Counted from the stretch's first letter, positions 987 through 58,217 are shown. The stretch is DNA of 64,000 nucleotides from Thermoanaerobaculia bacterium (GCA_035999335.1 DASYGV010000077.1:7064-71063), one strand, 5' to 3'. The notes: a model not told the origin generated them from the letters alone. Program-made: numbers and translations.

Positions 987-1092
987 TCTGTCATCCTGAA
1001 GCCGCGCAGACGGCGAAGGATCTCCTGCCGATAAAACGTGACGCGTTCCAATCGGGGGGTCCTTCGCCGTCTGCGCGGCTCAGGATGACAAG
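987..1092. repeat. MITE-like palindromic element, family 1 (arms GTCATCCTGA(A)GCCGCGCAGACGGCGAAGGA)
   Basis: About 30-nt inverted arms at 990-1020 and 1060-1089. A second full copy at 14103-14208 has its interior in the inverted orientation. Half copies at 3678, 46409 and 56176. Confidence 0.7.
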
Positions 1093-3677: not shown

Positions 3678-3737
3678 GTCATCCTGAGCTGCGGAGACAG
3701 CGAAGGAACCCATCGCAAGCGCGGAGGAGGTCCTTCA
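3678..3737. repeat. Partial/degenerate family-1 palindromic element
   Basis: GTCATCCTGAGCTGCGGAGACAGCGAAGGAA left arm. The right arm decays after TCCTTC and overlaps the stop of the convergent gene. Confidence 0.45.
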
Positions 3738-17500: not shown

Positions 17501-18721
17501 CTGACTATCGACGAGCGCGAGGCAGACGCGGCGTTGCTGAAGCTCGAGTCCGAGGGCGTTGTGTTGCGCGGGCACTTCAGTGCGCCTAATGAGTGGTGCG
17601 ATCGAAGACTCCTCGCGCGGATCCATCGCTACACCCTCAACCGCCTGCGCGCGGAGATCGAGCCGGTCGGCGCGGCGGATTTCATGCGCTTCCTCTTCGC
17701 GTGGCAGCACGTGGCGCCGTCGGCGAGGCTCATGGGCATCGACGGATTGCAGGCGGTGATCGCGCAGCTCGACGGCTTCGAGATTGCGGCCGGCGCGTGG
17801 GAGCGCTCGGTGCTGCCATCACGCATCGACACGTACGAAGCATCGCTGCTGGACATGCTCTGCCTGACCGGCGAAGTCGGCTGGGCGCGACTCTCGCCCG
17901 CGGCGACGAGCGTCGTCAGCGCGACACCGATCGCGCTGTTCCTGCGCGAGCACGCAGACGCGTGGCAGTCGTTGCGCGGCGAATCCGAGATCGTTCTCAG
18001 CGATCGCGCGCAGACGGTGCTCGACACGCTCCGCGCCCGCGGCGCCTGTTTCTCCCGCGACCTCGGCAATGACGGCGAGGCGCTTGACGAAGCATTGTCC
18101 GAGCTGGTCTCCGCGGGCCTGATCGCATCCGACGGCTTCGCTGGATTGCGGACGCTCGTCAACGCGAACGCTCGCGCGAACTACGCGGGACGATGGTCGA
18201 TCGTCGACGGGCTGAAGCCCGTCCTACGTGACGACGCGGTCGAGATCCAGGCGCGTGTGCTGCTGCGCCGCTACGGCATCGTTTTCCGCAGAATCCTCAC
18301 GCGCGAGCCGAACGCCGCGCCTTGGCGCGAGCTCGCGCGGGTGTACCGGCGACTCGAAGCGCGCGGCGAGATCCGCGGCGGACGTTTCGTCCACGGCATG
18401 AGCGGCGAACAGTTCGCGCTGCCGGAGGCGATCGAGCGCCTGCGCGAAGTGCGTCGAGAGACGCCGGACGGAAAACTGATCGTCCTCTCCGCCGCCGATC
18501 CGCTCAACCTCATCGGCATCATCACCCCGGACGAACGCATCCGCGCGGTGCCGGCCACGCGCATCGCATGGCGCGACGGCATCGCGGTCTCGGTGATGGA
18601 AGGCGACTATGTCCGCCCGCTGGCGAACCTCGACGAGACCGCGGCAATGAACGTCGCGGCCGCGCTCGCGGGAAGACGCGTGCCCGTCGCGAGCGGTTGG
18701 GTGGGAAGAAGCAGCGCGTAA
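14591..18721 (+). CDS. lhr: Lhr-like large ATP-dependent DEAD/DEAH-box helicase
   Basis: N-terminus FHPITRQWF...AQ..GW...[16 protein letters not shown]; DEIH box; HHGSLS; QLGSP; long C-terminal extension (1376 aa). Confidence 0.9.
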
Positions 18722-21473: not shown

Positions 21474-22208
21474 ATGCTGAAGTCCCTTCGGCGACTACAA
21501 TCGCGGATCGTGAAGCTCGCGCAGTTGATCGCGTTGCTATGGCTTGCGGCGGCGCCCGAGCGGCGCGAGACGACCGTCATTCCGTGGGCATGGGAGCGGC
21601 GCGAGGACTTGCGGTTCACGGGCTCCGGCGCGACGGTCGCGTGGTATGCCGGCATCCTCATGCTCGACGGTGAGCGCGTCGTCGTCGAGCCGCGCCGCAA
21701 TCCGCTGCAGCTCGCGGATGACGTGCGTCGCGTCGCCGTGATCCGCATCGAGACGAAGCATCCGTCGCTCGACGACGCGCAACTGCGCGCGACGCTCGCC
21801 GCGATCCTCCGCCTTTATCGCCACGCCGAAGAGCTGCAGATCGACTTCGACGCGAGGCGCTCCGAGCGCGCGTTCTATCGCGCGCTGCTGATCGCGCTGA
21901 GGAAAGAGAACGACGCGCCGCTGTCGATCACCGCACTCGCGTCGTGGTGCATCGGCGACCGCTGGATGAGCGGCCTGCCGATCGACGAGGCGGTGCCGAT
22001 GCTCTTCCGCATGGGCCGCGACGCGCGCGAAGTCCGCGCACGGCTCGCGCGCAACGAGGCATTCCCCGAACCGCGCTGCCGCGCGAGCGCGGGTATCTCG
22101 CTCGACGAACCGCTCCCCCGAATCCCGAAAGCCGCGCGCGTCTGGGTATTCAACCCGGAGCGCTGGACGGAGGCCGAATGGAACACCGCGCTCTCTCGCG
22201 TCCGCTGA
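21474..22208 (+). CDS. Hypothetical protein (DUF3142-like by memory)
   Basis: ORF with N-terminal hydrophobic segment LAQLIALLWLAAA; overlaps the next gene by 31 nt. Confidence 0.5.
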   Translation: MLKSLRRLQSRIVKLAQLIALLWLAAAPERRETTVIPWAWERREDLRFTGSGATVAWYAGILMLDGERVVVEPRRNPLQLADDVRRVAVIRIETKHPSLDDAQLRATLAAILRLYRHAEELQIDFDARRSERAFYRALLIALRKENDAPLSITALASWCIGDRWMSGLPIDEAVPMLFRMGRDAREVRARLARNEAFPEPRCRASAGISLDEPLPRIPKAARVWVFNPERWTEAEWNTALSRVR

Positions 22209-24166
22209 AGGTCGCCGCGCTCATGCTGTTGTGCGCCGCGGTGGCGACGCCGTGCTCGTTCGACACGACGCCGATCCTGTTCTTCGACGTGCGTCCGGAC
22301 ATGCCGATCGACGACTACGTCGACGGCCGCCTCGGCATCGTGCAACCGACCTACGCGCGCTCGCACCTCGTCGTCGCGTTCCGCCATCTCAGCAGCAAGC
22401 CTCCCTCGAACGCGGAGCGCGAAGGCTTCCGCGATCTGCTTCGTCATCGTCTCAACGAAGTTCCCTTCGAGGCTCGTCCGGTCAATCCCGTCGAACAGTG
22501 GGAGCGGCTGCGCATGAACATTCGCGGCCTCGAGTACAAGTGGCCGCCGGACCGCACTCGCTCGGTCGCGGGTGCTTACGATTCGTACGACAACTGCACG
22601 GACGACGCGTTCGCAACGGCATCGAAGACGCTCGCGCAACACATGAAGACCTTCGGCGCCGCAAATCCCGCGGTGATGCGCTGGCTCGACGCACAGGAGA
22701 TGGTCTTCGCGAATTGCACCGAAGGCGAGGCGCGCATCCCGGAAGACGATGCGTCGCTGCCGGCGGCGCTGCGAGCGGACCGGCAGTATCAGATTGCCGC
22801 GGCGAATTTCTACGCGTTGCGCTATGACGATGCACGGGCGCGATTCCTCGCCATCGCGCGCGACCGGCAGTCGCCGTGGCAGAAGACGGCCCGTCTCGTC
22901 GCGGCGCGCGTTCTCATCCGCGCGGAGAATCTCGACGTCGCAATCAAGGATGAGGATCCGCTCGCGCTGGCAGAGCAGGAGCTCCGCACGATCCTCGCCG
23001 ACGCGTCGATGAAATCGCTGCACGACGCGGCGTGGGACCTGTTCGCGGTGACGACGTTGCGCCGCAATCCGCAACAACGCTTCCGCGACGCCGCGAATGG
23101 ACTCCTCGGCGGCGAGACGTCGGCGCGTCGCGTGCGCACGCATCTCGCGGACTACACGATTCTCTGGGACAAAGAGGTCACCGGCGACGACGAGCTGACG
23201 GACTGGATCCGGACGTTCCAGTCGGGCGACGTCGCGCACGCGCTCGAACGCTGGAACGCGTCGAAGGGAACGCCGTGGCTCGTCGCCGCGCTCACGCACG
23301 TGAAGCCCGACGATGCGTCGGTGGCGTCGCTGCTCGAAGCATCGAAAAACATCGGCGCGGATTCTGCGGCGGCGACGTCCGTCGCATACCACCGCGCGCG
23401 GCTTTTGCTCGCTGCGGATCGCGTCGACGACGCGCGCGCGGAGCTCGACCGCGTGCTCGCGCGCGACATCCCGGTCTCCGCGCGCAATCAACTGCTCGCG
23501 CAGCGGCGTGCGGTTGCGCGCACGCTTGCGGAGTTCCTGCGTGACACGCCTTCGCGGCCGGTCGGCGAAGGAGCGGACGCGATCGATCCCGAGGAAGCGG
23601 CGCCGCATCTGCCCGAAGATGCGGCGGCGGTGCTGAATACCTGGACGCCGCTAGAGACGCTCGCGCGCGCGGCGGCCGATGAAACGCTGCCCACGGAGAT
23701 TCGCGACCCGCTAGCGCGCGCGTTGTCGACGCGCAGGCTACTGCTCGGCGAACCGTCGTTCGAGACCGCGGATGTCTTCGTGCACGACACCGAGCTGAGG
23801 CCGTACATCCACGCAGAACACTACTACTACGGCAATTGGTGGTGCGCCGGCGGCCCGACGCAAACCGCGCCAGTGCCGCTGTTCCTACGCCCGACACTTT
23901 CCGCCGCGAACGCGGAGCAGGAGCAATTACGCGCGATGGGCAGCGGCGCGTCCTGGATTCTGCGGACCGTGCTCGCACGCGCGAAGTCGCATCCGAACGA
24001 CCCGCGCGTTCCGGAAGCGCTGTCGCTCGCGATCCTCGGCACGCGCCGCGCGTGCGGCGACGGCGATACGGAGAAGCTGGCGAAGGAGGCGTTCGGAGCG
24101 CTGCACCGCAAGTACGGCAAGACGAGCTGGGCGGCGGAGACGCCGTACTGGTACAAGCCGTATTGA
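22178..24166 (+). CDS. Exported hypothetical protein (lipoprotein-like N-terminus)
   Basis: Internal ATG at 22178 gives MEHRALSRPLKVAALMLLCAAVATPCS; 662 aa, helical-repeat-like composition. Confidence 0.6.
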   Translation: MEHRALSRPLKVAALMLLCAAVATPCSFDTTPILFFDVRPDMPIDDYVDGRLGIVQPTYARSHLVVAFRHLSSKPPSNAEREGFRDLLRHRLNEVPFEARPVNPVEQWERLRMNIRGLEYKWPPDRTRSVAGAYDSYDNCTDDAFATASKTLAQHMKTFGAANPAVMRWLDAQEMVFANCTEGEARIPEDDASLPAALRADRQYQIAAANFYALRYDDARARFLAIARDRQSPWQKTARLVAARVLIRAENLDVAIKDEDPLALAEQELRTILADASMKSLHDAAWDLFAVTTLRRNPQQRFRDAANGLLGGETSARRVRTHLADYTILWDKEVTGDDELTDWIRTFQSGDVAHALERWNASKGTPWLVAALTHVKPDDASVASLLEASKNIGADSAAATSVAYHRARLLLAADRVDDARAELDRVLARDIPVSARNQLLAQRRAVARTLAEFLRDTPSRPVGEGADAIDPEEAAPHLPEDAAAVLNTWTPLETLARAAADETLPTEIRDPLARALSTRRLLLGEPSFETADVFVHDTELRPYIHAEHYYYGNWWCAGGPTQTAPVPLFLRPTLSAANAEQEQLRAMGSGASWILRTVLARAKSHPNDPRVPEALSLAILGTRRACGDGDTEKLAKEAFGALHRKYGKTSWAAETPYWYKPY

Positions 24167-30667: not shown

Positions 30668-30770
30668 GCGCGAATGATAACTGCGCGCACAGAGTCGCCT
30701 TTCTTCTCTATTGTCCGCCCTTCCGGATCGGAGTACCCTTCTGCGTTCCGGTAGCTTCCCACACACGACT

Positions 30771-33700
30771 ATGCAGAATGGCTTCGACGATCCGGTCAAG
30801 CTCCACCGCCTGGTGCGTCTCACTGAGCTGACGCAGCAGATGATGGCGGACCTTGGAACGACTCCGCTCCAAGAACAGCTCGACCGAATTGCAAAAGCGG
30901 CGCAAGAGACGCTGGAAGCCGAAGCGTGCGGCGTTTTTCTCGTCGCCGACAAAAAAGGCGAGCGAGGAACGAAGGAACTGATTCTCGAGGCAAGCGTGGG
31001 GCATCGTGAAAAGGGCGCAGAGCTCGGAAAGCGCCTCCCCATCAAGAGCTGCGAACGCTGCGGGCTGACGAGCCACATCGCTTACCAGGGAGAGCTGTTC
31101 CATGCATACGGCAGAGACCTGAGGGATCACTTCGCCGTAACGAATCCCGCGCATGAGCTGCGGCATACGGAGGGGCCGTGTGTCTCACTGCTGGCGATGC
31201 CGCTTCACAAGAAAGCCGGCGAGAAGAAAGAGCTGGTGGGACTGCTTCGCATCGACAACAAACGACGGCCGGACGGTCAACTGGTCACGGAAAGCGGCTT
31301 CGACGAAGACGACAAGTGGTTGATCCAACTCTTCGCCGGCATCGCGGTCGTCGCGATCGAGAACGCGGAGCTGATGCACTACAAGTCCAGCCTGATCTCG
31401 AGCTGCCCGAGCGGCATCATCGCCGTCAATCGACAAGGCATCGTCACCGAGTACAACGACAAAGCTGCAAAGATCCTCGGGAAGCCGCGAGAAGAAGCGA
31501 TGAACCGGCCGGTCCATGACCTGTACATGGATCCCAACGAGCCGCATAACATCGGCGACATGCTTCGCGAAAAGGGTGGCCGGATAGAAGACTACAAGAC
31601 ACTCGTAAGAGGTCCCAATGGCGAGCCGATTCCGATTCTGCATGCGGCAACCTGGCTCATTGCGGGCGGCTCGAGCGGTCAGCGCCTGGGGAGCGTCGGC
31701 TATTTCCAGGATGTGAGCGAGCTCCGCAAGCTCGAACGGCGCGATACATTGCTGAAAACCATCGACCTGGTCGCAAAGACGAGCGACATGGAGACCGGTC
31801 TGCAGCGATTCACCGAGGAAATGGTGCAGTTGCTCGGACGCTCGTATTGCGCGGTCCGGCTTCTCGAGAATGAAGAACGCCCGGTGCTCACGCTGCGCGC
31901 GGCGAGCCGAATTGATGACTCCTCGTGGCGCCCACCCATCCATGCACGCATGACGATCGACGAGTGTCCAGGACTGCTTGATCTGCTCGCCGGCGGCGTG
32001 CCAAAAATCCGGCAATCGGAGGACGAGCGGTTTCGCTTTACTCTGCAAAGGCTCACGAAGAGCATGGGCTTCGATCGACACCTGCAGTCCGTGCTCATCG
32101 GACCGCTGAACGTCGGCGGCCGCATCGTCGGGCTGATCGAGCTCGGTGACCGCCGCAGTATCACGCGCGAGACATTTGCGCCGGACGAAGAGATCGAGCT
32201 CGTCGGCGTGGTTGCGGCGCAAATGGGCGTTCTGATGGACCGTCTGCACCTCATCGAACAGACGACGCTGCGAGAGCGACGGCTCGCGAAACTCGCCAGG
32301 AGTGCTGCAGCGCTGAGGCCGGAAGCGGATCTTGCTACGCTGCTTCGCCACGTGGTCCGTCTCGCTCCCGAATTGATCGATTACGGCGTCGCGGGAATCT
32401 ATCTGTGGCATCCGCCGACGAAGAAATTTGTCCTCCGCGAGGGCGAGGGACTTCCTCGAGGTCTCATCGAACAAGAACCTGAGGCCGTCTCTGTGATCGC
32501 GACCGCAGGACGCGATCGCGAGACCCAATACGCCCGCACGCTGACGCTCAGCGCATCGGGCGTGACGATCGAGCTCGGGGAAACACTCGCAGTGCCCTTG
32601 CGCGTGCAAAGTGGCTTAGCGGAGGGCGTTCTCTTTGTTGCGAATCCGACGCAACAACTTCGCATCGATGGCGTCGACCAGGACGTCCTGGAGCGCTTTG
32701 CGTTTCATGTCGCCACGGCCGTTCAGACCGCGCGCCTTCTGAGTCACGCTGACCGCACGGGCGGACGGGCGGAAGTCCTCGACCACGTAACCGACTACAT
32801 CCTGAAATGCACCGATGAGGAAAAGTTGCATCACGCCTTTCTGACCGGCATCACCGCCAGCTACGGCCTACGGTTCAACCGCGCATTCCTTTTCGGGATT
32901 GACGACTCAGAGAACTATCTCGTCGGAAAGTACGGAATTGGGGAGCTCGACCAAAAAGACGCCGATGCGTCTTGGAACATCGACGAGGAAAGCGGACTCG
33001 TGGACTTCGGCCGTTATGTGCAGCGATCTGAAGCCGGCGAGATCGGCGCCTCGACCATCGGGCAGCTCATCCGGAGCGTTCAATTCCAGATCGGCGTCGG
33101 CGACCATTTTTCAGAGGTCATCCGCGGACACGATGAGTATCGAATCGTCGATCCGTCAGATTTCGGGAGGTTGCCGGAGTTCTTCTTCAATCAATTCCGC
33201 GTCACATCGCACGTCGTGATCGTGCCTCTTGGAACCTCGGGCAAGCGACTTGGCCTTCTGGTCGCCGACAACAAATTCACGCGCGCACCGGTCGATACGA
33301 ACGTGAATGCATTGACTGCATTCGCACGGACGGTCACCGTCGCGCTCGAGAACCGCGCTCTCCTCAAGGAGCTCGACGATCACCAGCGCCAGCTCGAAGC
33401 ATTCTATGCAATGAGCAGTGATCTCGCGGCGGTCACCGACCCGGACCTGATTCTCGGCATGCTTGCGGATCGGGCAATCCGCACGATGAATGCCTACGGA
33501 GCAACGCTGCTGTTGTTTGACTCCACGCGCACGATCGTCAAACGGATTCCGCTCGGACGAGATCGAGAGGTTGATCCCAAGACGGGCGTCCGTGACAACG
33601 GCATCACAATGGAAGTGCTGCGCACGGGAAAGGCGCGCAAAATCGAAGACGTTGGACGTGGAACCGATTTGAACCCGCTACTGATGTTCCGCGGCATCAA

Positions 33701-35588
33701 AGCGGCGCTCTGCGCGCCGCTTTCACTTCCCGACAAACAACTGGGGGTCATTTGGTTTCACTACGACCGCCCCCGCCGTTTCAGCATGTCCCTCGTTGGC
33801 GCGCTGCAACTCGTTCTCAATCAAGCCACGGTCGCCTACGAGCAGGCCCGGCGCATCAAGGCACTCGAGGGAATCCGTGAGGCGGCCGAGTCACTCGCCG
33901 CAACCGAGGACCTCGGCGGCGTTCTCAACCGCATTGTCGATAGTGCTAGGCGTTTATTTCATGCGTCCTCCTCGATCTTGTGGCTCTCGGATGGTGAACG
34001 TTTTCTAGCCGAGCGCTCGGTCTCCAGCGGCCTCGACGCACAAATCTGGGAGGCTCGGCAAGCCCAGGGACCGGCCGCCATGGGGATCATGATTGAACAT
34101 CTGCGCGGCGGCTGGATCGGCATTTCCGACTACAAGACTGCTTCCGATTCCACCGTGCCCCAGGAGATGCTCGACTTTCTCGAAGAGGTCGACGCGCGCG
34201 GGTATCAACTCGTTCCCTTGTCGGTCGGTGAGGAGAAGCTCGGTGTCCTTTGTACGGTGCACAAAAGCCCCGTTCCTCCGGGCGAAGATCAACAGTTCAT
34301 CGCCGAAGAGTTCGCAACCCACAGCGCGTGGTCGCTCAAGAAGGCGCGACTTCTCGAAACGGTCATGAAGGCAAAGGCCGCTGCGAAGGTCGTGGCGGAA
34401 GTCGTTGCCAGCGGGACTCAGCGGACGGTCCGGGAGAAGCTCGATCGCATCGCTCAACTTTCTCTCGACGCTCTCGGTTGTGGCGCGGTCGTCCTTTTCG
34501 CGAGCAATGACGGAGACTTGAGTCACCCGGCGGCGACCGCGGGCGTGAACTTCCCCGAGGCGATGGAAAACGATGCCGAAAAGCAGGACTACGATCTTGT
34601 CCGCCGCCTATTGAAGGCGCCACGTCCGGAGATCGTACCGAACGTTCGAGAGCATCCCGACTTCATGCAGCGGCGTTTCGTCCTGGACGAAGAAATCCGT
34701 TCGTGCGCGGCGTTTCCGCTCCGCGCCGGCGACACGAGCGTGGGCGTGATGTTCGTGAACTATCGAACTCCGCACGCGTTCACCGCGCGCGAAGTCGACG
34801 ACATCGAGCTGTTCGCGAGCCAGGCGGCGACAGCCATCCATTCGGCACAGTTGTTCGACGATCTGAATCGCAAAATAGAAGAGCTTCACAATACGGAGCA
34901 GCTCCTCGCGGCGCGCACGGATGTGGCGTGGATCGGCCTTCGGACGATCGACTGGTCCCACAGCGTGGCCAATGCAGTCAGCAAGATTCTCAATCTTTTA
35001 GCGGCATTGCGTCGGTCGACTCGTGACGGTGTAGCCACCATGAAGATCGACCGCGCGTCGCAGCTCGTCCGCCAAATGGCGCGACCGCCTCTGCCGGAGT
35101 ACGACGCACCCACTCAAGCAGTTTTCGCGATCGACGAGCCGTTGTTGCGGTCGCTTCGCGATGACATTTCGACGATTTATAACGCGGACAGCACGACGTT
35201 CCGCATCGAAATCGACCTTCCCACGGAGACCCACGTACAGGCCGCGCAATGGTGGCTGCAGTGCGTCATCGGCTATGCGGTGAAAAACGCGTTGGACGCT
35301 TTCAGCAACACGCAACAGGAGCGCGAGATCGTTCTCGGGGCTCGTCGCGCGGGTCGCCACGTCGAGATCTTCATTCGAGACAACGGCCCAGGGATTCCGC
35401 CGGAGCTCCTCGAGACGCTGACCGTGCGGCCCGTGCCCAAAGAAGACCGCGCAAGCGGCCTCGGAATTGGTCTCTGGGTCACTCGCCGGGTCATGCAGAT
35501 CTTCAACGGCGACGTTCATGTAAGCAATGTAGAACCGCACGGCGCATTAGTTGTACTGACGCTGCCGGTCCTCGATCGACTTCCATGA
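30771..35588 (+). CDS. Cytoplasmic sensor histidine kinase with about seven GAF-like modules and one PAS module
   Basis: No TM segment; repeated GAF-like blocks; PAS-like SCPSGIIAVNRQGIVTEYNDKAAKILG; kinase core with DWSHSVANAV, IRDNGPGIPPE and GLGIGLW. Confidence 0.85.
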   Translation: MQNGFDDPVKLHRLVRLTELTQQMMADLGTTPLQEQLDRIAKAAQETLEAEACGVFLVADKKGERGTKELILEASVGHREKGAELGKRLPIKSCERCGLTSHIAYQGELFHAYGRDLRDHFAVTNPAHELRHTEGPCVSLLAMPLHKKAGEKKELVGLLRIDNKRRPDGQLVTESGFDEDDKWLIQLFAGIAVVAIENAELMHYKSSLISSCPSGIIAVNRQGIVTEYNDKAAKILGKPREEAMNRPVHDLYMDPNEPHNIGDMLREKGGRIEDYKTLVRGPNGEPIPILHAATWLIAGGSSGQRLGSVGYFQDVSELRKLERRDTLLKTIDLVAKTSDMETGLQRFTEEMVQLLGRSYCAVRLLENEERPVLTLRAASRIDDSSWRPPIHARMTIDECPGLLDLLAGGVPKIRQSEDERFRFTLQRLTKSMGFDRHLQSVLIGPLNVGGRIVGLIELGDRRSITRETFAPDEEIELVGVVAAQMGVLMDRLHLIEQTTLRERRLAKLARSAAALRPEADLATLLRHVVRLAPELIDYGVAGIYLWHPPTKKFVLREGEGLPRGLIEQEPEAVSVIATAGRDRETQYARTLTLSASGVTIELGETLAVPLRVQSGLAEGVLFVANPTQQLRIDGVDQDVLERFAFHVATAVQTARLLSHADRTGGRAEVLDHVTDYILKCTDEEKLHHAFLTGITASYGLRFNRAFLFGIDDSENYLVGKYGIGELDQKDADASWNIDEESGLVDFGRYVQRSEAGEIGASTIGQLIRSVQFQIGVGDHFSEVIRGHDEYRIVDPSDFGRLPEFFFNQFRVTSHVVIVPLGTSGKRLGLLVADNKFTRAPVDTNVNALTAFARTVTVALENRALLKELDDHQRQLEAFYAMSSDLAAVTDPDLILGMLADRAIRTMNAYGATLLLFDSTRTIVKRIPLGRDREVDPKTGVRDNGITMEVLRTGKARKIEDVGRGTDLNPLLMFRGIKAALCAPLSLPDKQLGVIWFHYDRPRRFSMSLVGALQLVLNQATVAYEQARRIKALEGIREAAESLAATEDLGGVLNRIVDSARRLFHASSSILWLSDGERFLAERSVSSGLDAQIWEARQAQGPAAMGIMIEHLRGGWIGISDYKTASDSTVPQEMLDFLEEVDARGYQLVPLSVGEEKLGVLCTVHKSPVPPGEDQQFIAEEFATHSAWSLKKARLLETVMKAKAAAKVVAEVVASGTQRTVREKLDRIAQLSLDALGCGAVVLFASNDGDLSHPAATAGVNFPEAMENDAEKQDYDLVRRLLKAPRPEIVPNVREHPDFMQRRFVLDEEIRSCAAFPLRAGDTSVGVMFVNYRTPHAFTAREVDDIELFASQAATAIHSAQLFDDLNRKIEELHNTEQLLAARTDVAWIGLRTIDWSHSVANAVSKILNLLAALRRSTRDGVATMKIDRASQLVRQMARPPLPEYDAPTQAVFAIDEPLLRSLRDDISTIYNADSTTFRIEIDLPTETHVQAAQWWLQCVIGYAVKNALDAFSNTQQEREIVLGARRAGRHVEIFIRDNGPGIPPELLETLTVRPVPKEDRASGLGIGLWVTRRVMQIFNGDVHVSNVEPHGALVVLTLPVLDRLP

Positions 35589-35601
35589 GAAAGAACACGA
35601 C

Positions 35602-36444
35602 ATGGCGAACTACACGATTCTCCTCGTAGACGACGACAAAGAGACGGTCGACCTTTATGCCGAATCACTGGAAGCAGCCGGCTATGATGTCCTGCGATGC
35701 GCGGGCGAACGACCAGCAAAAGCGCTGATCCACAACAAGCCAGCATCGTTCGACCTCGCCATCATCGACGTTCGGCTCCGGCCGCCGCGCGATGACACGA
35801 GCGGCTTCGAGGTGGCGAAAGCCATCAAACGTGACATTCCGGTGGTCATCTTTTCGGAGAATCTCAATCTCGAAAGAGCTTTGCGGGCCGGGAGTCTTTC
35901 CAAAGAAGGAGCGATTCGTGACGCACACGTCATTCGCAAGTCCGACGGACCTGAAGCATTGATCGACCTGATTCGCAAGATTCTTCCTCACCGTGTCTTC
36001 ATCGCCCACGGCCACGACACGAACTTCCGACACGATGTCTTCTTGACGCTTACAAATCTCGGGGTCAGCCCGACGGTGCTGATGGAAACCGCCACTGAAG
36101 GGGACACCATCGCAGAATCCATCGAGAGGCATTCCAACGTCAGCTTCGCCGTGATCCTCGTAACCGCTGACGACCTAGGCAAGGCCAAGAACGACAAAGC
36201 GCTGCAACCGCGAGCGCGCCAAAACGTCATGGTCGAATGGGGCTACTTCATAGGCAAACTTGGCCGACAGAGAGTGATTGCCCTCAACAAGAGCGATCCG
36301 AAGAAACCAATCGAGCTCCTCCCGACGGACTACTACGGGCTGCGCTTCATCCCCGTCGACAACGACGGCAAGTGGCGCCGGAGCCTCGCGAAGGAGCTCG
36401 CGAATGCGGGGATTCCGGTTCATTTGGAGCGCCTTCCGCCTTGA
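35602..36444 (+). CDS. Response regulator: receiver domain fused to a TIR-like (COG4271/PF10137, Cap12/PycTIR-type) domain
   Basis: LLVDDD and DLAIIDVRL receiver motifs. C-terminal RVFIAHGHD...FAVILVTADDLG...PRARQNVMVEWGYFIGKLGRQRVIAL...LAKELANAGI. Starts 13 nt after the kinase stop. Confidence 0.75.
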   Translation: MANYTILLVDDDKETVDLYAESLEAAGYDVLRCAGERPAKALIHNKPASFDLAIIDVRLRPPRDDTSGFEVAKAIKRDIPVVIFSENLNLERALRAGSLSKEGAIRDAHVIRKSDGPEALIDLIRKILPHRVFIAHGHDTNFRHDVFLTLTNLGVSPTVLMETATEGDTIAESIERHSNVSFAVILVTADDLGKAKNDKALQPRARQNVMVEWGYFIGKLGRQRVIALNKSDPKKPIELLPTDYYGLRFIPVDNDGKWRRSLAKELANAGIPVHLERLPP

Positions 36445-39960: not shown

Positions 39961-40263
39961 TCAGTCGAAATCCACTTCAACTTCGTCACTGATTTCAAGT
40001 TCGGCAAAGCAGGCCATGCAGAGTAGCTTCACGCCAGCACCGCTTTCCCAGTCGACCTCGTCGGAATCGATATCGACTTCAAGGACAAGAGGTCCTTCGC
40101 CGTCCCTCTTCGGAGCAAAGTCCCACATCCGCGTGACCTGCTCCGTTACGCGGAAAGGTGCGCTCCCGTTCCTCTCCCATGGGCCATGTCCGCCGTCGTT
40201 GCCACAGTGGGGACAGCGGACGCCGAACTCGGCCCATTGCAATGTCTTGCAGTGCGCATCCAT
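39961..40263 (-). CDS. Small acidic zinc-ribbon-like protein
   Basis: Internal ATG at 40263; CPHC ... CMAC cysteine pairs; acidic C-terminus; AT-richer DNA. Confidence 0.4.
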   Translation of the reverse strand: MDAHCKTLQWAEFGVRCPHCGNDGGHGPWERNGSAPFRVTEQVTRMWDFAPKRDGEGPLVLEVDIDSDEVDWESGAGVKLLCMACFAELEISDEVEVDFD

Positions 40264-40412
40264 AAGACCTCCGCATCGCGCAAAACTTTGCCCGAGCTTA
40301 CCTCGGTTCGCAGGCGCCGCGCTGAACTGCACTGCCTGCACAAAACGCAGAATTGAAAGGTGCGGAGCAGCGAAAACGCCACACCGGGTAGAATCGTGCC
40401 GGTCCGCCAATC

Positions 40413-40916
40413 ATGACGAAACTGCCCGATGGGCTGTACGACCTGCTGGTTACACAAGCGATCGAGCATGAGATTGCGCAGCTTGGTCAAAAACGCCGCG
40501 CTGATACGGAACCTCTGGAACCTGCGGACTCGCATCTGCTCCTTGCACGTCACATCGCCGGAGTCATTCGCAATGCTCTTCGCGAGATTCCAGAGGAAGA
40601 ACGAGTCCATCGACAGACGCAGATCAGCAACGAGATCCTGCGCAGCGTCTCGGTTTCGCTGCCGCAACAGTTCGCCGACGACGACTACGTCGCCGAACCT
40701 CCGCAGCGACTCGCTGCTGTGTATCCGATTGACGCTTTGAAGTCACGCCGGCCTGCAGCGCCGGAGATTCCTCTCAGCCAAAGCGATCTCCTCGTCAACG
40801 CTCGGGACGAACCCCGCATCGGCGCAGTACTGGAGAGGGAGATCGACTCCGCCGATCGTGTCGATCTGATCATCGCATTCATTCGATGGAGCGGCCTGCG
40901 GGTATGCTCCGTATAG
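40413..40916 (+). pseudogene. N-terminal fragment (about 165 aa) of a PLD(HKD)-nuclease/helicase-type protein
   Basis: LPDGLYDLLVTQAIEHEI...LLVNARDEPRIGAVLEREIDSADRVDLIIAFIRWSGLR resembles the start of roughly 1000-aa PLD plus DEAD-helicase proteins. The ORF stops right after the first PLD-region strand. Confidence 0.5.
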
Positions 40917-41127
40917 GAGCGGATGGTCACTCATTCAGAATCGGCGATGGTGTAGAAGAGCGTAGGTAATGACGCGTGCGAATATTGGCGTTGACGAGCA
41001 CTAGCTTTCGAAGCGCGCAGGGCTTCCAGGTCGAATTGCAGGATGAGCCACGTTCACCGAATTTCACGACAGTGGCGGCAATCATCGTGAGCCTCTTTCA
41101 GGACTCCGAAGGGCGTACAATCGACGG

Positions 41128-41826
41128 ATGGTAAATTGCTGGGCTAACGTTCTCGGGGATTGTGCCGGCGGTCAGAGTCGGGAGCACTACCTGAGCCGTA
41201 GTGTGATCGGGTCAGGAGATGTGACGGTGTCCGGTTTTCCATTTCTGCGTGGCGACACGCGGACAATATCTGTAAACCGATTGGTGGCCAAAATTTTGTG
41301 CAGAAAGCATAACGAAGCACTCTCAGAAGTTGACACGGCCGCAGGGCATTTCTTCAATGTGATGCGAGCCTTTAGGCACCGTGCCGCTATGCGAGCAAAG
41401 GGTTACCGGAAGCCGGGTGGAATTGATATGTACGATGTTGATGGTTTCCTCGTGGAGCGATGGATGCTTAAGACAATAATCAATTTGATGGTAGATCAGC
41501 CTTTACGCCAAGAACGCTGGCGTCCCGATGACGTCTGGGTTCGCTGTGCATACGGTCTGGCGCCGTTTCCTGATCGCTGTGGGTTATATTTGCTGGCTGA
41601 TAACAAATACCGGAAAGCCTCGCCCGATTCTGGGATATGTATTTGGACTCTGACGAAAGGAAAGAACGCGGATCTTCTTACCGGCGGTCACTACAAAATC
41701 GAAGAGGCGCAGTTCGCTATCACAATGGCGCCTCTCGCGGGCGCACACCAACCTCTTTATCGGCTTCGCGCACTCAAGGACAAGCCGGCTCTTGAACTTC
41801 GCCAGATAATCAATTTCCGATGGTGA
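41128..41826 (+). CDS. Hypothetical protein with possible His-Me finger (HNH-like) signature
   Basis: NCWANVLGDCAGGQSREHYLS ... KILCRKHNEALSEVD (C..C..EH then C..HN..L..D). AT-richer DNA; no neighbours in the same operon. Confidence 0.45.
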   Translation: MVNCWANVLGDCAGGQSREHYLSRSVIGSGDVTVSGFPFLRGDTRTISVNRLVAKILCRKHNEALSEVDTAAGHFFNVMRAFRHRAAMRAKGYRKPGGIDMYDVDGFLVERWMLKTIINLMVDQPLRQERWRPDDVWVRCAYGLAPFPDRCGLYLLADNKYRKASPDSGICIWTLTKGKNADLLTGGHYKIEEAQFAITMAPLAGAHQPLYRLRALKDKPALELRQIINFRW

Positions 41827-41853
41827 CCTTTCCTTTAGTGGCTAAACATCCTG

Positions 41854-42476
41854 TTAAGTGACGCTGGCGAGCCGCTCCCGCCGGCTCATGTAGCGGAGCG
41901 TCTCTTCGTCGGCGTAGGTAAGAACTGCTAAGGCGTCACGTCGCGATACGTGCGACAACGGAATCGCCGCGAACGGTTGAATAGATGGTGCGATGAGCCG
42001 CGCGACGAGCGCGGATGTGGCGGCCATCGCAAAATGGTTGTCGACGTTGTCGATGAATCGGTGGATTTCGTTCCCGCGCGCATCCTTGTCAGCGACTTTC
42101 TGGAGCTTCTTCAGATGTTCGCGAACGTCCTTGATAGGGGTGTTCGTTCATCCGGAATCAGCAGCCCCCGCTCCGTGTGTGTTGCCTCGGCACACCTGCG
42201 TTCGAGCAGGCGGTTGCGATCGATCTTCGCGAGCCAATACTTCGGCGTCGACTCGGCGTCGCGATGCGCACTTCCAACGCCGTCGTCGGTGACGAGTTGC
42301 TCGGCCAGCGTCAGCTCCTTCCCGTTATCGAACTGGAGCAGAGCGAGCGTTTGCCGATGATCCGAGGCGAGACGTTGCGAGCTGTCAAACAGAGGCATCA
42401 TGTCGCACACGCCGAACCGCGGTGCGAACTGCGCGATCAACTCGCGCGTGCGCTCTTCCCACTTCGAGCTGTGCAT
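41854..42476 (-). pseudogene. Frameshifted hypothetical gene
   Basis: ORF 42111-42476 continues in another frame (PIKDVREHLKKLQKVADKDARGNEIHRFIDNVDNHF...RERLASVT, stop at 41854). The shift maps to the G4/C4 run at 42137-42140. Confidence 0.45.
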
Positions 42477-42944: not shown

Positions 42945-44348
42945 TCACCGCCGCACGGAGCGCCGCCGCCCGCCCGGCATTTCGATCTTCGCCCACGACG
43001 TCGCCCAGGTTCCGTTCTTCGCGTGGATCTGCGTCGTCCAGAACGACGCGTCGTCGACCGGATCGACGAGCGTGGTCGTGTAGTCGCCCCAGCGATCGTC
43101 GAACGTCACCGCCGTTTCCCCCGCGCGGATCGGTGCGACCGTGCTGACGCGGCCGAGGAAGTCGCGATAGATGTAGCCGGATGCGGCGTACTGCGTCGCG
43201 GAAAAATGTCCGAAGCCGATCAGCATCGAGCCATGACGGTTCACCGCGATGGATGGATAAGCGAAGACGCGTCCTTGCGGATCCGTCAGCGAGCCCCACT
43301 CCGCGTCACCCGTGTCCGGGTCGAACTTGCACCACACGATCGTCGAGGAAGCACCCGGCGCGTCGCGCGTGAGCGTCACGTAGATCTTCCCGTGCCGCTC
43401 GACGGCGTTCTGGACCACGTCGTAGCCGCCATCGAGCACGAACGCGGTGCCGAGTTGCGGGAGATACGGCTCGGCCGTTCGCCACGAGGGCGGCTCGGCG
43501 ATGAAGCGCACGCTGGAGGCGCCGAGGCGCTGCACGGCGATGCCGTTGTTGGAGACGGAGCTGACGACGTATTCGACCGCGCGATCGGTGCTCACCGGCT
43601 GCGCGTAGTCCAGGCTCACGTTGTATTGCGTCAGCGGGAGCGTCGGCGGCATCGCGTAGAGATGCTGCTTTTGCACGGATGCGAACACGGCGTTGTTTGA
43701 CGGCCAGCGCAGCGTGCCGAAGACCACGGTGTCGCGCGTGATCGCCAGCATCGAGAAGTCGCAGTCCGAAACGGAGAGCTGGTAGCGTCGCCACGTGCCG
43801 GTCGGATCGCCGCTCTCCGAGACGGCGAACATCATCGCCTCTTCGTCGAAGATGGTCATCATCACCCAGCGGTCGGCGCCGGCGTCGTACACCGCGCGCG
43901 GGTCGTAATACACGCCACTCGGGGAGTTGGCCGACCAGAACTGCGACTGCGCGACGGTCTTCAGAACGTTGCCGTCGCGGTCGTGCACGATGATGCGCGC
44001 ATTCGAGATGCTGAGGACGTGCGCCGGACCGACCGCGCCCGTCGCGTCGGGAGGAGTCAGGTTCTTCGACGTGTCGGAGTCGAAGACCGTCGTCATCGGC
44101 GGCGGCGCGATCGTGACCGCCGGCGCGGAAAGCTCCCCGGACGAGCTCGGCGCTTCGAGGCGCGCACGGAATTGCGGAACGTGACGATGGACGATTCTGC
44201 GCCGCTGCTCGAGGAACGGCCTCGCGGCCAGCTCGCCCATCGCCGCGCGCGGGAGCGCAACCGCGTGGACGATTTCCTGCGCGACGACTGGGATCGAGAG
44301 GACGAGGGACAGGAGAAGCGCGGAGAACGAACGAGGAAAGGTCATCAT
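42945..44348 (-). CDS. Exported hypothetical protein
   Basis: Internal ATG pair at 44348 gives MMTFPRSFSALLLSLVLSIPVVAQ; 467 aa, beta-rich composition. Confidence 0.6.
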   Translation of the reverse strand: MMTFPRSFSALLLSLVLSIPVVAQEIVHAVALPRAAMGELAARPFLEQRRRIVHRHVPQFRARLEAPSSSGELSAPAVTIAPPPMTTVFDSDTSKNLTPPDATGAVGPAHVLSISNARIIVHDRDGNVLKTVAQSQFWSANSPSGVYYDPRAVYDAGADRWVMMTIFDEEAMMFAVSESGDPTGTWRRYQLSVSDCDFSMLAITRDTVVFGTLRWPSNNAVFASVQKQHLYAMPPTLPLTQYNVSLDYAQPVSTDRAVEYVVSSVSNNGIAVQRLGASSVRFIAEPPSWRTAEPYLPQLGTAFVLDGGYDVVQNAVERHGKIYVTLTRDAPGASSTIVWCKFDPDTGDAEWGSLTDPQGRVFAYPSIAVNRHGSMLIGFGHFSATQYAASGYIYRDFLGRVSTVAPIRAGETAVTFDDRWGDYTTTLVDPVDDASFWTTQIHAKNGTWATSWAKIEMPGGRRRSVRR

Positions 44349-44421
44349 GAGTGCGCCCGCGGACCGAAGGCGCGCCATTTTGCCACGATTTGACAAGACC
44401 GAACCCCGGACCTACCCTGAA

Positions 44422-46439: not shown

Positions 46440-46797
46440 CCCCTTGCATTGAGCGCTTTACCGTTTTCGCGACCGCGACTCGCCGCGATCCTCGCACATG
46501 CGACAACCACCTGTGCTGGAACCTCCCGTATTACACGTCGTCAGCGCTCCAATTCGCCGCGCTCTGCGTCATTTTTGTTCCATAGCGCGGCATGTTCCAT
46601 CACATCGCGACAAACGCGATGAGAGTGCCCATACGTAGACCAGGCGAGTACAAGTTGGAGTAGGACGTAGGCGGACGATGGATGGTCCCCATCCTCTCCG
46701 GAAGGGATCATGAGCACTCGGAAGCTGCGAACGGCATCGTGCTTCGCGATATAGTTGCCGGCACTCGCGATCGGCCCTGCGAAAAATTGGAGGTTGC

Positions 46798-47664
46798 TTG
46801 GAAGGCTGCCTTTTCATCATCTTGGTCATCGTCGCCGCTCTTATCGCTATACCCATCAGCATCTCGCAAGCCGAGAAGAGACGCGAAGCCGCGGCTCAGG
46901 AAGCGGCGCGCGAGAGGGCCGAGCGCGAGCGGGCTGAAGCCGAGCGCCAACGCGATTTCGCACAGCAGAACCAATTTATCACTCAAATACGGAGCATCAA
47001 CGAAGAATCACTCAGTGCTTTTGAATCGATGCCAGTCGAGGTAGAGACGGCGGAAAAGTATCTAGACCAAGCTGAAGTAGATTTTTCCGAAGGAGCTTTC
47101 GCTCCGTTTTGGACCTCAGTCGAAAAAGCGACCTTGGCTCTCGCGAGATTCGACGAGAATGTCTCGAAGATCGAGAGGAATTCGTCTAAGTATGTTGATT
47201 TGGTAAAAGGGTACAGGGGTCGGTCGCCAGTGTTCTCCATATCACCGGACTCGACACCGAAGTTGAAGATTGCTTTTGAGACGTCGAAGCGAATGAGCGA
47301 GATTGTTCGTAAGGCGCAGCGCAACTTTGAATTCTCCTTGATCTACGAACAGAGGAAAACCAACCAGATCCTGGTCGCGGGTTTCAGGAGTCTAGCGCAA
47401 GCCTTGGAGGAGATGACTTGGAGGATCACTTCCTCAATCGATGACCTTACGAACTCGGTTGATAGAATGAGTTCGACGCTGAACGCATCATTACAAAAGA
47501 TTCACGATCAAACTGAGAGGATTGCGGTGAGCGCAGAGAAACATCGCGAAGAAGTTGCGAAAGAAGCATCTGGCAGAGGCGAGAGAGAGCGTAAAACACT
47601 CGAAATGCTCGACAACCTTCAGCGGAAACGCTATCCCAGTATTATTCATGGTGGCTTGCGGTAA
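46798..47664 (+). CDS. Hypothetical membrane-anchored coiled-coil protein
   Basis: TTG start 4 nt after GGAGG; N-terminal TM FIILVIVAALIAIPI; Glu/Arg/Ala-rich helix; AT-richer DNA. Confidence 0.55.
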   Translation: MEGCLFIILVIVAALIAIPISISQAEKRREAAAQEAARERAERERAEAERQRDFAQQNQFITQIRSINEESLSAFESMPVEVETAEKYLDQAEVDFSEGAFAPFWTSVEKATLALARFDENVSKIERNSSKYVDLVKGYRGRSPVFSISPDSTPKLKIAFETSKRMSEIVRKAQRNFEFSLIYEQRKTNQILVAGFRSLAQALEEMTWRITSSIDDLTNSVDRMSSTLNASLQKIHDQTERIAVSAEKHREEVAKEASGRGERERKTLEMLDNLQRKRYPSIIHGGLR

Positions 47665-47849
47665 ACAGGCGGTCTGAGTATTACGTACTAAGAAATGGCG
47701 CGATCTACAGGATGCTTTCGTTCCTGAGGTCGCGACCATCTATGAGGCCAACATCAACATACGGTCGGCGACGCGGCGAAGCGAAGGATCGCGGAGCGTG
47801 CAAAGAGCGGGCTACGCAGCGTGAATCATCCACAGCTGTACTCGCTGGG

Positions 47850-48191
47850 TTATTGCGTCTCCCGGATGACGAAGTCTCCGCCCGGCGATGTCGCCTTCAG
47901 CAATGCGTCCAGTTTTTCGAGAGTCGGTGCGGCTTCGCCCCGCTCATATCGCGCGTAAGCATTTCGCGACGTCGCGCTGAGTCGCGATGCCATATCTCTT
48001 AGCGAAGCGCCGCTTGCTGCCCGGCGGCGGCGCAGTAAGAGCGCGACCATGGACGTCGCGTCAGAACCGGAGACCTCGAATTCAGCACGGCCCTTTTCGT
48101 GTACGGTTGCGTAGAAGTCGCTGCGGTTCACGGCGGTTTCGAGCCAGTCCTTCACCATCTCGAGGGCCTCGCGTCGTGTGCGGCCTTGCAA
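47850..48191 (-). CDS. XRE-type HTH protein resembling the C-terminal part of HicB antitoxins (possibly 5'-truncated)
   Basis: REALEMVKDWLE (end of a HicB-like N-domain) then ASLRDMASRL..SRNAYARYERGEAAPTLEKL HTH. Only a TTG start 1 nt after the upstream stop, or an ATG 11 codons in. Confidence 0.55.
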   Translation of the reverse strand: MQGRTRREALEMVKDWLETAVNRSDFYATVHEKGRAEFEVSGSDATSMVALLLRRRRAASGASLRDMASRLSATSRNAYARYERGEAAPTLEKLDALLKATSPGGDFVIRETQ

Positions 48192-50842: not shown

Positions 50843-50940
50843 TCGGCTGACTCCTTTGGTTTCCCGCAGCGGTGTCATCATAGCCCCATATTTGCGGATC
50901 GGTGGATAGAAGTACTCTGTCCGCAACAGAAGGAGTCCCC

Positions 50941-53373: not shown

Positions 53374-53395
53374 ACGCGGTCAACAGGAGTTGCGT

Positions 53396-56995: not shown

Positions 56996-58158
56996 TCAAG
57001 ACGGCGAGGATCCGATGGCCGAACCACCCTCGGCACTCGCAACCCGCAACTCGCCACTCCTCCTGATCACCGCGATCGACACATCGTCATCCGGCACCAC
57101 CGATCCAATGTACGTTCGCCACTCGCCGAGGATCGATTCGATCAGCGACGCCGCGGAGGCATCCGGATGCCATCCGGCGACCACTTCGACGTAGGCGTCC
57201 CCGAACTCCTTCTCCTGAAGGTTGCGCGCTTCGGTGAGGCCGTCCGAGTGGAGGAGGAGGCGCTCGCCGGGGGCGAGGGTGCCGGAGGTGACTTGCCAGG
57301 TGAGGTTGGCTTTGACGCCGAGGGGATAGGCGCCGCGGCCGATGCGCTCGGTGACGCGGCCCGCGGCGTCGATCTTCAGTACCGGCGGGTGGCCGGCGAT
57401 CATCGCGAGATACGTGCCGTCCGGTTGGAGCAGGAAATAGCAGCAGGAGAAGAATGAGCGCGAGCCGCCGGTGCGGCAGAGAATGCGATTGAGCGACGCC
57501 GTGATCGCCGCGGGCGACGGATCGACTTCGAGCTGCGTGCGGAACGCCGCGTGCGCGACGGCCATCACCAGGCCCGCGGCCATGCCGTGTCCGGATGCGT
57601 CGCCGAACAGCACGGCGAGGCTGCCGTCGGGCATCGGGACGAAATCGTAAATGTCGCCGCCGACTGTGTTCGCGATGCGATTGAAGGCCGCGATGTCCCA
57701 CTGCTCAGTGCGCGGCATCTGGTGCGGGATGAGGCTGGCCTGCAGGTCGCGCGCGAGTTGCAGCTCGTCGCGGTACTTCAGTTTGTCGATCAGCTCCATC
57801 GCCAGCAGCAACACCATCAACAGAAACGTCGCCGCGATCTCGAGCAGCGTCCAGAGCGGCGGCTGCTCCATCTGCGACGTCAGGGAGAGGAGGCAGACGA
57901 AGAAGAAGACGAACGCGATCGCGAAGAGGATGCGCCGGTGCGGTGCGAGGCGCTTGGCCAGCCCGTAGAAGATCGCGCTGACCGTGCGCACCCAGCGCCG
58001 CAAACGCCTCGGCTCCCGCTCGATGGACGCGCTGTGCTCGGCCATGAGCATCTTCCGCGTCTCCGGCCACTCGAGCGAATAGAGATTCGTCACGTCGTCC
58101 GAGGTGAGGGACGTGAACGTGCTCTTGCCGAGGTCGAGCCAGTCGCGCAGGCGGGCCA
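56996..58158 (-). CDS. Membrane-associated SpoIIE/PP2C-family protein phosphatase
   Basis: Two TM helices then GGDIYDF, FGDASGHGMAAG, LLHSDGLTEA, DDVSIAVIRR motifs. Start uncertain: GTG at 58158 preferred over the ORF maximum of 58294, which would overlap the divergent kinase. Confidence 0.7.
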
Positions 58159-58217
58159 CAGGGGGATTGTACGGAGTGATGGACTTTGAGTTGCGAGACG
58201 AGGGATACACTCCGCGA

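Follow-up and report, generated by a model that had tools for sequence, protein, structure and literature searches.

Response regulators with an enzymatic, cell-arresting output are rare, and Detocs is the sole characterised example that we found of a two-component system that itself acts as a defence, as opposed to regulating one. In Detocs, the kinase DtcA phosphorylates DtcC (a receiver, REC, fused to a PNP domain), which degrades ATP, and the receiver DtcB buffers the leak; the alternative effectors are REase, TOPRIM and transmembrane (TM) ones, TIR not being among them (Detocs paper). This precedent indicates that a relay from a kinase to a receiver-effector protein can gate an abortive-infection enzyme. 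For TIR enzymes, the work on SfSTING established that E84 is catalytic, that R78 and N80 bind NAD+, that D110 from the dimer mate completes the pocket, and that it is oligomerisation (in the SfSTING filament) that completes the TIR active site (PMC9402430). Receiver and TIR domains have both been described among the effectors of vWA-MoxR systems, in which no histidine kinase accompanies the receivers (Kaur et al. 2020, 2021), and neither receivers nor kinases are mentioned in a systematic survey of TIR systems in bacteria from 2025. Here we describe, in a 64,000-nucleotide (nt) stretch of DNA from a Thermoanaerobaculia bacterium (GCA_035999335.1, DASYGV010000077.1:7064-71063; hereafter ‘the window’, GC content ca. 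66%), a pair of adjacent genes that encode a soluble histidine kinase of 1605 amino acids (aa) with a multi-GAF/PAS input region and a 280-aa response regulator in which a receiver is fused to a TIR-like domain (REC-TIR; 100% identical to P0001 from a Thermoanaerobaculia, Acidobacteriota, metagenome-assembled genome, MAG). We consider it reasonably probable that this pair constitutes a dedicated two-component module with an enzymatic and not a transcriptional output, i.e. a phosphorelay-activated TIR NAD+ hydrolase with a likely role in biological conflict.

The likeness to Detocs lies in the wiring (a histidine kinase that would pass phosphate to a regulator bearing a growth-arresting, metabolite-degrading enzyme) and in the modularity of the effector; moreover, a relative of the window pair (locus L095) carries a stand-alone 94-aa receiver between kinase and REC-TIR, reminiscent of DtcB. 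The differences are equally apparent: DtcA has TPR repeats where the window kinase has GAF/PAS modules, the window lacks a DtcB counterpart (no receiver-only open reading frame, ORF, was found between or beside the two genes), and the place of the PNP ATP nucleosidase is taken by a PF10137 TIR domain with a predicted NAD+-cleaving activity. The kinase had no match in PADLOC-DB v2.0.0 at E<=0.1 (the Detocs models are assumed to be in this database) and was thus not recognised as a DtcA, while the regulator returned the PDC-S35, TIR effector and PycTIR models, DtcC not being among them. Judged by these profile matches, the window pair is not a Detocs system and is analogous to it in architecture only. 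A preliminary description of this DNA, made from the sequence alone, had stated that no characterised example was known; the novelty was there overstated, given that Detocs is a characterised receiver-effector defence, although its kinase family and its PNP effector are indeed different.

With CBASS Cap12 and Pycsar PycTIR the regulator shares the PF10137 family, the predicted fold, the catalytic Glu/Arg/Asn and the partner-loop Asp, and the principle of an active site completed by oligomerisation, known from Cap12, is the one we propose for REC-TIR. What differs is the input, which would be a phospho-receiver and not STING or another cyclic-nucleotide sensor (Pfam recovers REC and TIR only). 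Membership of the Cap12/PycTIR systems was rejected because the regulator has no cyclic-nucleotide sensor domain and no cyclase neighbour (Pfam and PADLOC scans of its neighbours in the window revealed no CD-NTase/cyclase gene). Assignment to Thoeris ThsB was likewise rejected, since TIR_2 stayed below threshold (20.3 bits, cut-off 28) and none of the scanned window neighbours encoded a SIR2, SLOG or Macro partner. The vWA-MoxR (VMAP) ternary systems come close in one relative, in which the REC-TIR cassette ends a SAV_2336/VMAP-N protein (P0096) beside SIR2-VMAP-C and MoxR-like AAA genes; unlike the receivers of those systems, the one in the window has a dedicated kinase, and no vWA, MoxR or VMAP gene was found in the window. 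The principle of a two-component-gated effector (Detocs) and the TIR NADase family were known already; the novelty lies in bringing the two together, in the kinase clade dedicated to this pairing and in the multi-GAF input.

The two ORFs and the 13-nt gap between them lie where the preliminary description had placed them (Table 1). By its Pfam match, the C-terminal half of the regulator belongs to PF10137 (CAP12-PCTIR_TIR; E=5e-28, 97.9 bits against a cut-off of 24.7; residues 131-252, profile positions 1-117 of 119), and the proposed fusion of a receiver to a PF10137 TIR-like domain is therefore upheld. An AlphaFold2 (AF2) model of the regulator (built from 46 sequences; pLDDT 88, pTM 0.77) predicts a TIR (flavodoxin-like) fold for the same half, which Foldseek matches to the Cap12/SfSTING TIR domain (7un8_A, SfSTING: E=8e-6, root-mean-square deviation 2.7, 142 columns). 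Residues R206, N208, E212 and D243 align with R78, N80, E84 and D110 of SfSTING, and E212 (the Glu of NVMVEWGYF, on whose conservation the preliminary description had laid weight) aligns in addition on the Glu of ‘RDNVVFEFG’ in the solved Cap12/PycTIR chains. Conservation was counted in a 94-sequence alignment (the window protein and 93 full-length REC-TIR proteins, mostly 50%-identity cluster representatives; 16 REC-TIR proteins were aligned additionally), in which R206, N208, E212 and W258 are each present in 94/94 and Asp or Asn occupies position 243 in 92/94. From these residues we infer that the TIR domain cleaves NAD+.

The suggested likeness to COG4271/PF10137 proteins of the Cap12/PycTIR type stood as regards the family, while the TIR half proved much nearer to another group, the PADLOC candidate PDC-S35 (E=2e-51, as compared to 1e-12 to 2e-7 for the CBASS TIR effector and PycTIR models; the NCBIfam Cap12 equivalogs, with 32 and 25 bits, fall far under their cut-off of 450). 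PDC-S35 comprises single-gene TIR-like proteins of ca. 230-280 aa, and only the C-terminal half of its models is matched (e.g. model positions 133-276 of 278), the receiver replacing the N-terminal half. Bacterial proteins of 290 aa, for instance P0016, share about 50% identity with the TIR half. The stand-alone TIRs that were compared directly (P0016 and a 275-aa protein of L074) differ from the regulator in having a non-REC N-terminus and no kinase partner seen; the second of them, from Pseudomonas (aligned over residues 23-270), was rejected as a REC-TIR on account of its lack of a REC Pfam match, of an acceptor Asp and of a kinase neighbour.

The N-terminal half of the modelled regulator retrieves receiver domains in Foldseek (target-normalised TM-scores of 0.8-0.86), and its alignment points to the full residue set of a classical receiver: a canonical acidic pocket (D10-D11-D12), the acceptor Asp (D56, 93/94), the Thr/Ser switch residue (S85 in the window, Thr or Ser in 90/94) and the Lys (K113, 82/94).

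The kinase core is, on the alignments, that of a class I histidine kinase with a divergent H-box. The preliminary description had called it atypical, which agrees with the presence of HATPase_c and the lack of a Pfam HisKA match, and all the helix and kinase motifs quoted there were found at the expected spacing. Two further kinases of the window (a GAF-HisKA-HATPase protein at 1085-3244, + strand, and a Reg_prop/Y_Y_Y-HisKA-HATPase protein at 58104-62048, + strand) have canonical HisKA matches and served as internal controls. Aligned kinase cores from 12 REC-TIR loci have in common an RT-x-[LV]A-x-x-G ... H motif, with the His (His1397 in the window kinase) invariant across the cores from 11-12 loci and the N box, G1 (D-x-G-x-G) and G2 (G-x-G-L) retained throughout the family. 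The profile of this family matches the DHp+CA regions of ZraS (9jfj, E=4e-26) and FixL/YF1 (4gcz) end to end, and its His aligns on the His of ‘HEIRNPL’ and ‘HELNQPL’ in their H-boxes; it is because of this His-on-His correspondence that we regard it as a true class I core. The DHp His and the CA boxes of a classical two-component kinase thus appear to be in place, with the caveats of the missing HisKA match and the atypical H-box. A word-indexed search with the kinase core returned 6 proteins, missed known orthologues and was uninformative, and the cores of the fetched loci were aligned instead.

The input region belongs to a protein for which no TM segment was found (maximal Kyte-Doolittle mean of 1.64 over 19-residue windows), in agreement with the preliminary description. 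In a whole-protein scan, Pfam GAF matched across 6 stretches (E=7e-54) and PAS once (E=3.6e-11, residues 206-315; as had been proposed), and scanning segment by segment for individual modules yielded six significant GAF modules and a seventh below threshold, so that the earlier count of about seven was fair. The sub-threshold module (module 4) is longer (216 aa) and matches GAF models in their C-terminal half only. Residues 808-884, partly overlapping it, matched the NCBIfam ‘MadS family’ kinase model (E=2e-8) in the whole-protein scan; module 4 scanned alone gave no NCBIfam match, and the MadS match was not reproduced. Arrays of PAS and GAF domains are an input type usually devoted to the sensing of intracellular small molecules.

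The short spacer between the two genes suggests a single operon; no terminator-like site beyond chance expectation was found between them, and a promoter and terminator scan of the locus gave nothing exceeding shuffled expectation. The mechanical start of the kinase ORF is a TTG at 30711; translation probably begins with the ATG at 30771, as judged by the orthologue of locus L001, similarity to which sets in five residues past this codon. The domain E-values and the 1605-codon open frame place the pair far past chance. Its GC content (0.60 against 0.66 in the flanks) and its GC content at third codon positions (GC3; 0.71 against ca. 0.85) are lower than those of the surroundings and suggest horizontal acquisition, the atypical GC being the sole hint of it.

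The pairing is conserved among relatives, as the preliminary description had anticipated. At every locus in which a stand-alone REC-TIR gene could be placed on a contig (ca. 15 loci, with Acidobacteriota, Chloroflexota and Entotheonella as named sources), a co-oriented kinase gene lies directly upstream, i.e. the adjacent and conserved arrangement of classical two-component systems, and the kinase-core family co-varies with REC-TIR (Table 1). The kinase inputs vary, with GAF present wherever the input region was resolved, except in the small kinases of L010, which have none. A HMMER search with a REC-TIR profile against 1.84 billion cluster representatives gave 5721 matches at E<=1e-30; among the best 150 of these, roughly half cover the TIR region only. 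At least 93 proteins besides that of the window (best matches together with earlier hits) give full-length matches to the profile, some of them as REC-REC-TIR forms of ca. 405 aa, and the sources inspected were mostly metagenomes only. Among the best 80 loci in a search of genome_contigs (one genome per species, 185,579 species), 3 were full-length REC-TIR. The architecture is thus recurrent but uncommon.

Two fusions extend this picture. The first (P0107, 1580 aa, L091 2286-7028; known from one 10.5-kb contig) consists of a window-like GAF/PAS array, collinear with that of the window kinase at 32-40% identity, joined to a pseudo-receiver-TIR; the homology extends to the very end of the last GAF and no farther, HATPase_c is absent, the acceptor Asp is replaced by Asn (‘AIINLQL’) and the acidic pocket reads ‘HNN’. 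On this alignment, P0107 would tie the sensor array to the effector in Rosetta-stone fashion. In the second (P0096, 814 aa), a SAV_2336/VMAP-N domain (E=6e-90) precedes the REC-TIR. Taken together, the two fusions suggest that the receiver may be a general coupling or oligomerisation adaptor. P0096 is encoded in a Thermoanaerobaculia MAG (L092: GCA_036376245.1, DASVAS010000092.1, 1-19323) in which two kinase/REC-TIR pairs flank SIR2/MoxR/VMAP genes, the order on one strand being multi-GAF kinase, REC-TIR, SIR2-VMAP-C, MoxR-like AAA, VMAP-N-REC-TIR, multi-GAF kinase and REC-TIR. This is a compound conflict-system locus that contains the REC-TIR cassette three times.

In more distant relatives (L003 and L006, probably also L095 and the P0010 contig), a third gene of ca. 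650 aa with REC-X-wHTH architecture follows REC-TIR. It had no PADLOC match and is not present in the window; in L003, its middle region matches TCAD9 weakly and its wHTH is of the OmpR type. Both L095 and L006 open with a S1-REC-GAF-HATPase protein, and 3' of the three-gene module of L006 (11772-16900) lie VWA, PP2C-like, YukD (ubiquitin-like) and FtsK/SpoIIIE genes, a set that recalls type VII secretion or ternary conflict systems.

On the assumption that the module works as its domains indicate, the soluble kinase would integrate intracellular cues through its PAS and seven GAF-type modules, autophosphorylate at His1397 and pass the phosphate to Asp56 of REC-TIR. Receiver domains dimerise upon phosphorylation. 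The phosphorylated receivers would accordingly associate into dimers or higher oligomers, and the PF10137 TIR domains would thereby touch one another in a way that completes the active site, with R206, N208 and E212 contributed by one subunit and the D243 loop probably by its partner, as in the SfSTING filament. The conserved active-site residues and the partner-loop Asp/Asn fit that composite site. The assembled TIR would then cleave NAD+, leading to cell arrest or death, and, by analogy with Detocs, the module most likely serves in biological conflict, through abortive infection or an arrest induced by stress. More tentatively, and with less confidence than in the module itself, we suggest that the pair typifies a new family, in which a dedicated clade of soluble GAF-rich kinases (usually multi-GAF, and marked by the RT-x-LA..G...H H-box) triggers NAD+ destruction via REC-TIR as a suicide or dormancy switch, the GAF arrays sense infection or stress directly, and the receiver acts as an oligomerisation adaptor that may also function free of phosphorylation (P0107, P0096).

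Several observations weigh against this proposal. In the kinase, Pfam HisKA was matched neither in the whole protein nor in its segments. The residue after the H-box His is acidic in HisKA kinases generally, and it is so in ZraS and FixL, whereas it is Ser after His1397 and variable across the family; given the atypical H-box without this acidic residue, the autokinase chemistry may differ. In the regulator, the second residue of the acidic pocket (Asp in the window protein) is Asn in 59/94 REC-TIR proteins, and outside the catalytic helix the similarity to Cap12/PycTIR is weak (PDB E=1e-5 to 0.08), so that the substrate could differ. As regards the locus, the pair lies among metabolic and housekeeping genes and not in a defence island, the direct and inverted repeats flanking 30.0-36.5 kb are short and at chance level as island boundaries, and neither tRNA genes nor mobile-element boundaries were found in the window. 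The window has no buffer receiver, which would leave the control of leak unexplained if the effector is lethal. Finally, the literature searched yielded no description of a kinase/REC-TIR pair or of PDC-S35 (one retrieved article, PMC11237479, was dismissed as it concerns CesT/Tir chaperones).

The first alternative is that the pair is a physiological, non-immune regulator whose array senses metabolites, redox state or energy and whose REC-TIR tunes NAD+ or nucleotide pools reversibly (in dormancy, starvation or development) in bacteria with complex lifestyles. We consider this unlikely, although it accords with the unremarkable, metabolic or housekeeping surroundings of the window pair and of L001, L002 and L013, with a soluble kinase bearing PAS and seven GAF-type modules, with the transcription-factor regulator of the three-gene variants (typical of adaptive signalling) and with the named sources (Thermoanaerobaculia, Pyrinomonadaceae, Anaerolineae/Aggregatilineales and Entotheonella). 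Conflict-type neighbours, on the other hand, are found in relatives only and argue for the opposite: apart from the SIR2/VMAP/MoxR genes of L092, L093 has a PhD/PIN toxin-antitoxin pair and a DNA methyltransferase downstream of its kinase/REC-TIR pair, L011 adjoins a trypsin-PLD protein and a LRR-Roc-COR-TIR protein (i.e. a TIR-NTPase), and L012 adjoins a TIR-TPR protein and an IS66 transposase. Furthermore, the reuse of the REC-TIR cassette as C-terminal effector of a VMAP-N (SAV_2336) protein, the PADLOC defence candidates as nearest TIR relatives, the atypical GC suggestive of horizontal acquisition, and the recovery of just three full-length REC-TIR loci among the best 80 across the species searched are at odds with a physiological regulator.

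Slightly less probable still is a second alternative, in which the wiring is the same and the TIR domain is a signal generator that converts NAD+ into a messenger of the cyclic ADP-ribose (cADPR) type for a receptor encoded elsewhere, like Thoeris ThsB or plant TIRs. Bacterial and plant TIR domains have been reported to make cADPR isomers, the NADase catalytic residues equally support cyclase or transferase chemistry, the REC-X-wHTH gene of L003 and L006 would provide a second, transcriptional output (which suits signalling over suicide), and the missing buffer receiver is more easily tolerated if the product is a signal. Nevertheless, neither the window nor the examined relatives encode a receptor (SLOG, Macro, SAVED, CARF, STING or similar) beside the pair, the characterised PF10137 members that we found among solved structures and in NCBIfam (Cap12/TIR-STING and PycTIR) are terminal effectors, of which TIR-STING is described as degrading NAD+, and beyond the sub-threshold TIR_2 no ThsB-type family was reported by Pfam. 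The last alternative, that the TIR-like domain is not a NAD+ hydrolase and acts on another nucleotide or nucleic-acid substrate (as an N-glycosidase or a 2',3'-cNMP-synthetase-like enzyme) or as a phosphorylation-controlled scaffold, we hold to be improbable, for while the PDC-S35-like subfamily is only distantly similar to Cap12/PycTIR and a relationship of the SfSTING TIR to MilB and similar nucleotide glycosylhydrolases has been described (PMC9402430), the conserved residues are those of the SfSTING catalytic Glu and of its NAD+ phosphodiester and ribose contacts, and the invariance of R206, N208, E212 and W258 argues for catalysis over a scaffold.

Table 1. Features of the kinase/REC-TIR pair in the window and gene arrangements at related loci (positions in the window, or in the named locus where one is given)
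Feature	Position	Strand	Basis or detail
Multi-GAF/PAS soluble sensor histidine kinase, 1605 aa	30771..35588	+	ORF, Pfam
GAF module 1, residues 33-196	30867..31358	+	Pfam GAF E=4e-9, isolated segment
PAS, residues 206-319	31386..31727	+	PAS/PAS_9 E ca. 3e-11
GAF modules 2 and 3, residues 339-487 and 521-652	31785..32726	+	GAF E=9e-9; GAF_3 E=2e-7
Divergent GAF-like module 4, residues 655-870	32733..33380	+	Sub-threshold GAF only, E ca. 0.01
GAF modules 5, 6 and 7, residues 890-1022, 1047-1188 and 1219-1357	33438..34841	+	GAF_2 E=1e-9; GAF E=1e-6; GAF_2 E=7e-14
DHp-like dimerisation/phospho-acceptor region, residues 1365-1490, atypical H-box	34863..35240	+	Family alignment/profile
Predicted acceptor His1397 (DWSHSV)	34959-34961	+	Alignment; codon checked
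HATPase_c, residues 1496-1600, with N box, G1 (DNGPGI) and G2 (GLGIGL)	35256..35570	+	Pfam E=7e-14
Intergenic spacer, 13 nt, GAAAGAACACGAC	35589..35601	+	Between kinase TGA (35586-35588) and regulator ATG (35602)
REC-TIR response regulator, 280 aa	35602..36444	+	ORF, Pfam, PADLOC, AF2 model
Receiver, residues ca. 6-125	35617..35976	+	Pfam Response_reg E=8e-10 (6-97)
Predicted phospho-acceptor D56	35767-35769	+	REC-TIR alignment
Receiver Lys K113	35938-35940	+	REC-TIR alignment
PF10137 TIR-like effector domain, residues 131-278	35992..36435	+	Pfam, PADLOC, Foldseek
Predicted catalytic E212 (NVMVEWGYF)	36235-36237	+	Alignment with SfSTING E84
D243 in P-T-D loop	36328-36330	+	Alignment with SfSTING D110
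L001, L002			Close relatives of the window pair; L002 kinase split (1362 + 229 aa)
L003-L005, Entotheonella			GAF-HATPase-REC hybrid kinase, REC-TIR
L006-L009			1741-aa REC-GAF kinase, REC-TIR
P0009 and P0010 contigs			Kinase upstream of REC-TIR likewise
L010			Two tandem pairs, small kinases
L011, Thermoanaerobaculia; L012, Pyrinomonadaceae			Kinase, REC-TIR
L013, Aggregatilineales			PASx3-GAF kinase, REC-TIR
L093			Peripla_BP-GAF kinase, REC-TIR
L095, Anaerolineae	7694-7978 (stand-alone REC)		Kinase, 94-aa REC, REC-TIR
Third gene REC-X-wHTH	L003 8842-10791; L006 8901-10859		26% identity between the two over full length

Within the window, the pair is bordered on one side by a divergent copper amine oxidase gene and on the other by a convergent gene for a Vgb-lyase-like propeller, with peptidases, a dehydrogenase, a class V aminotransferase, MetH-like genes and a Lhr helicase farther away. 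The helicase (14591-18721, + strand, 1376 aa) matched the PADLOC models DpdJ (E=0) and BrxHI (3e-80), and its reading as a DpdJ/BrxH defence gene was rejected on its canonical Lhr domain set in Pfam (DEAD, WH_Lhr, DEAD_assoc); the case illustrates how easily a housekeeping Lhr is mistaken for a defence gene. Two patches of low GC (40000-42000 and 46500-48000; 0.48-0.60 as compared to 0.66) hold ORFs (40016-40471, 40413-40916, 41128-41826 and 46798-47664) with no Pfam match and may represent additional foreign DNA. Moreover, we observed tandem paralogues of ca. 810 aa (50902-53373 and 53390-55810, + strand) that combine an M14 carboxypeptidase with fn3 and Big_3_5 domains, and three ORFs (3735-5897, - strand, 720 aa; 21944-24166, + strand, 740 aa; 42945-44396, - strand, 483 aa) with coding-like GC3 and no Pfam family at the thresholds used.

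REC-TIR proteins are at present labelled ‘CheY-like’, ‘TIR domain-containing’ or ‘predicted nucleotide-binding protein’, and the kinase family escapes Pfam HisKA. If the new family tentatively suggested above is real, it would be the first two-component system with a TIR output and the second defensive one, by sequence not descended from Detocs. A REC-TIR output would couple phosphorelay logic to a class of TIR NADases whose known members are activated through oligomerisation by ligands. The P0107 fusion and the double-pair locus L092 represent ready comparative material, and, receivers being classic phosphorylation-driven dimerisers, the minimum required for the activation of a TIR enzyme could be studied cleanly in this module. 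Furthermore, the seven-module GAF/PAS input poses the question of which intracellular cue would justify the destruction of NAD+.

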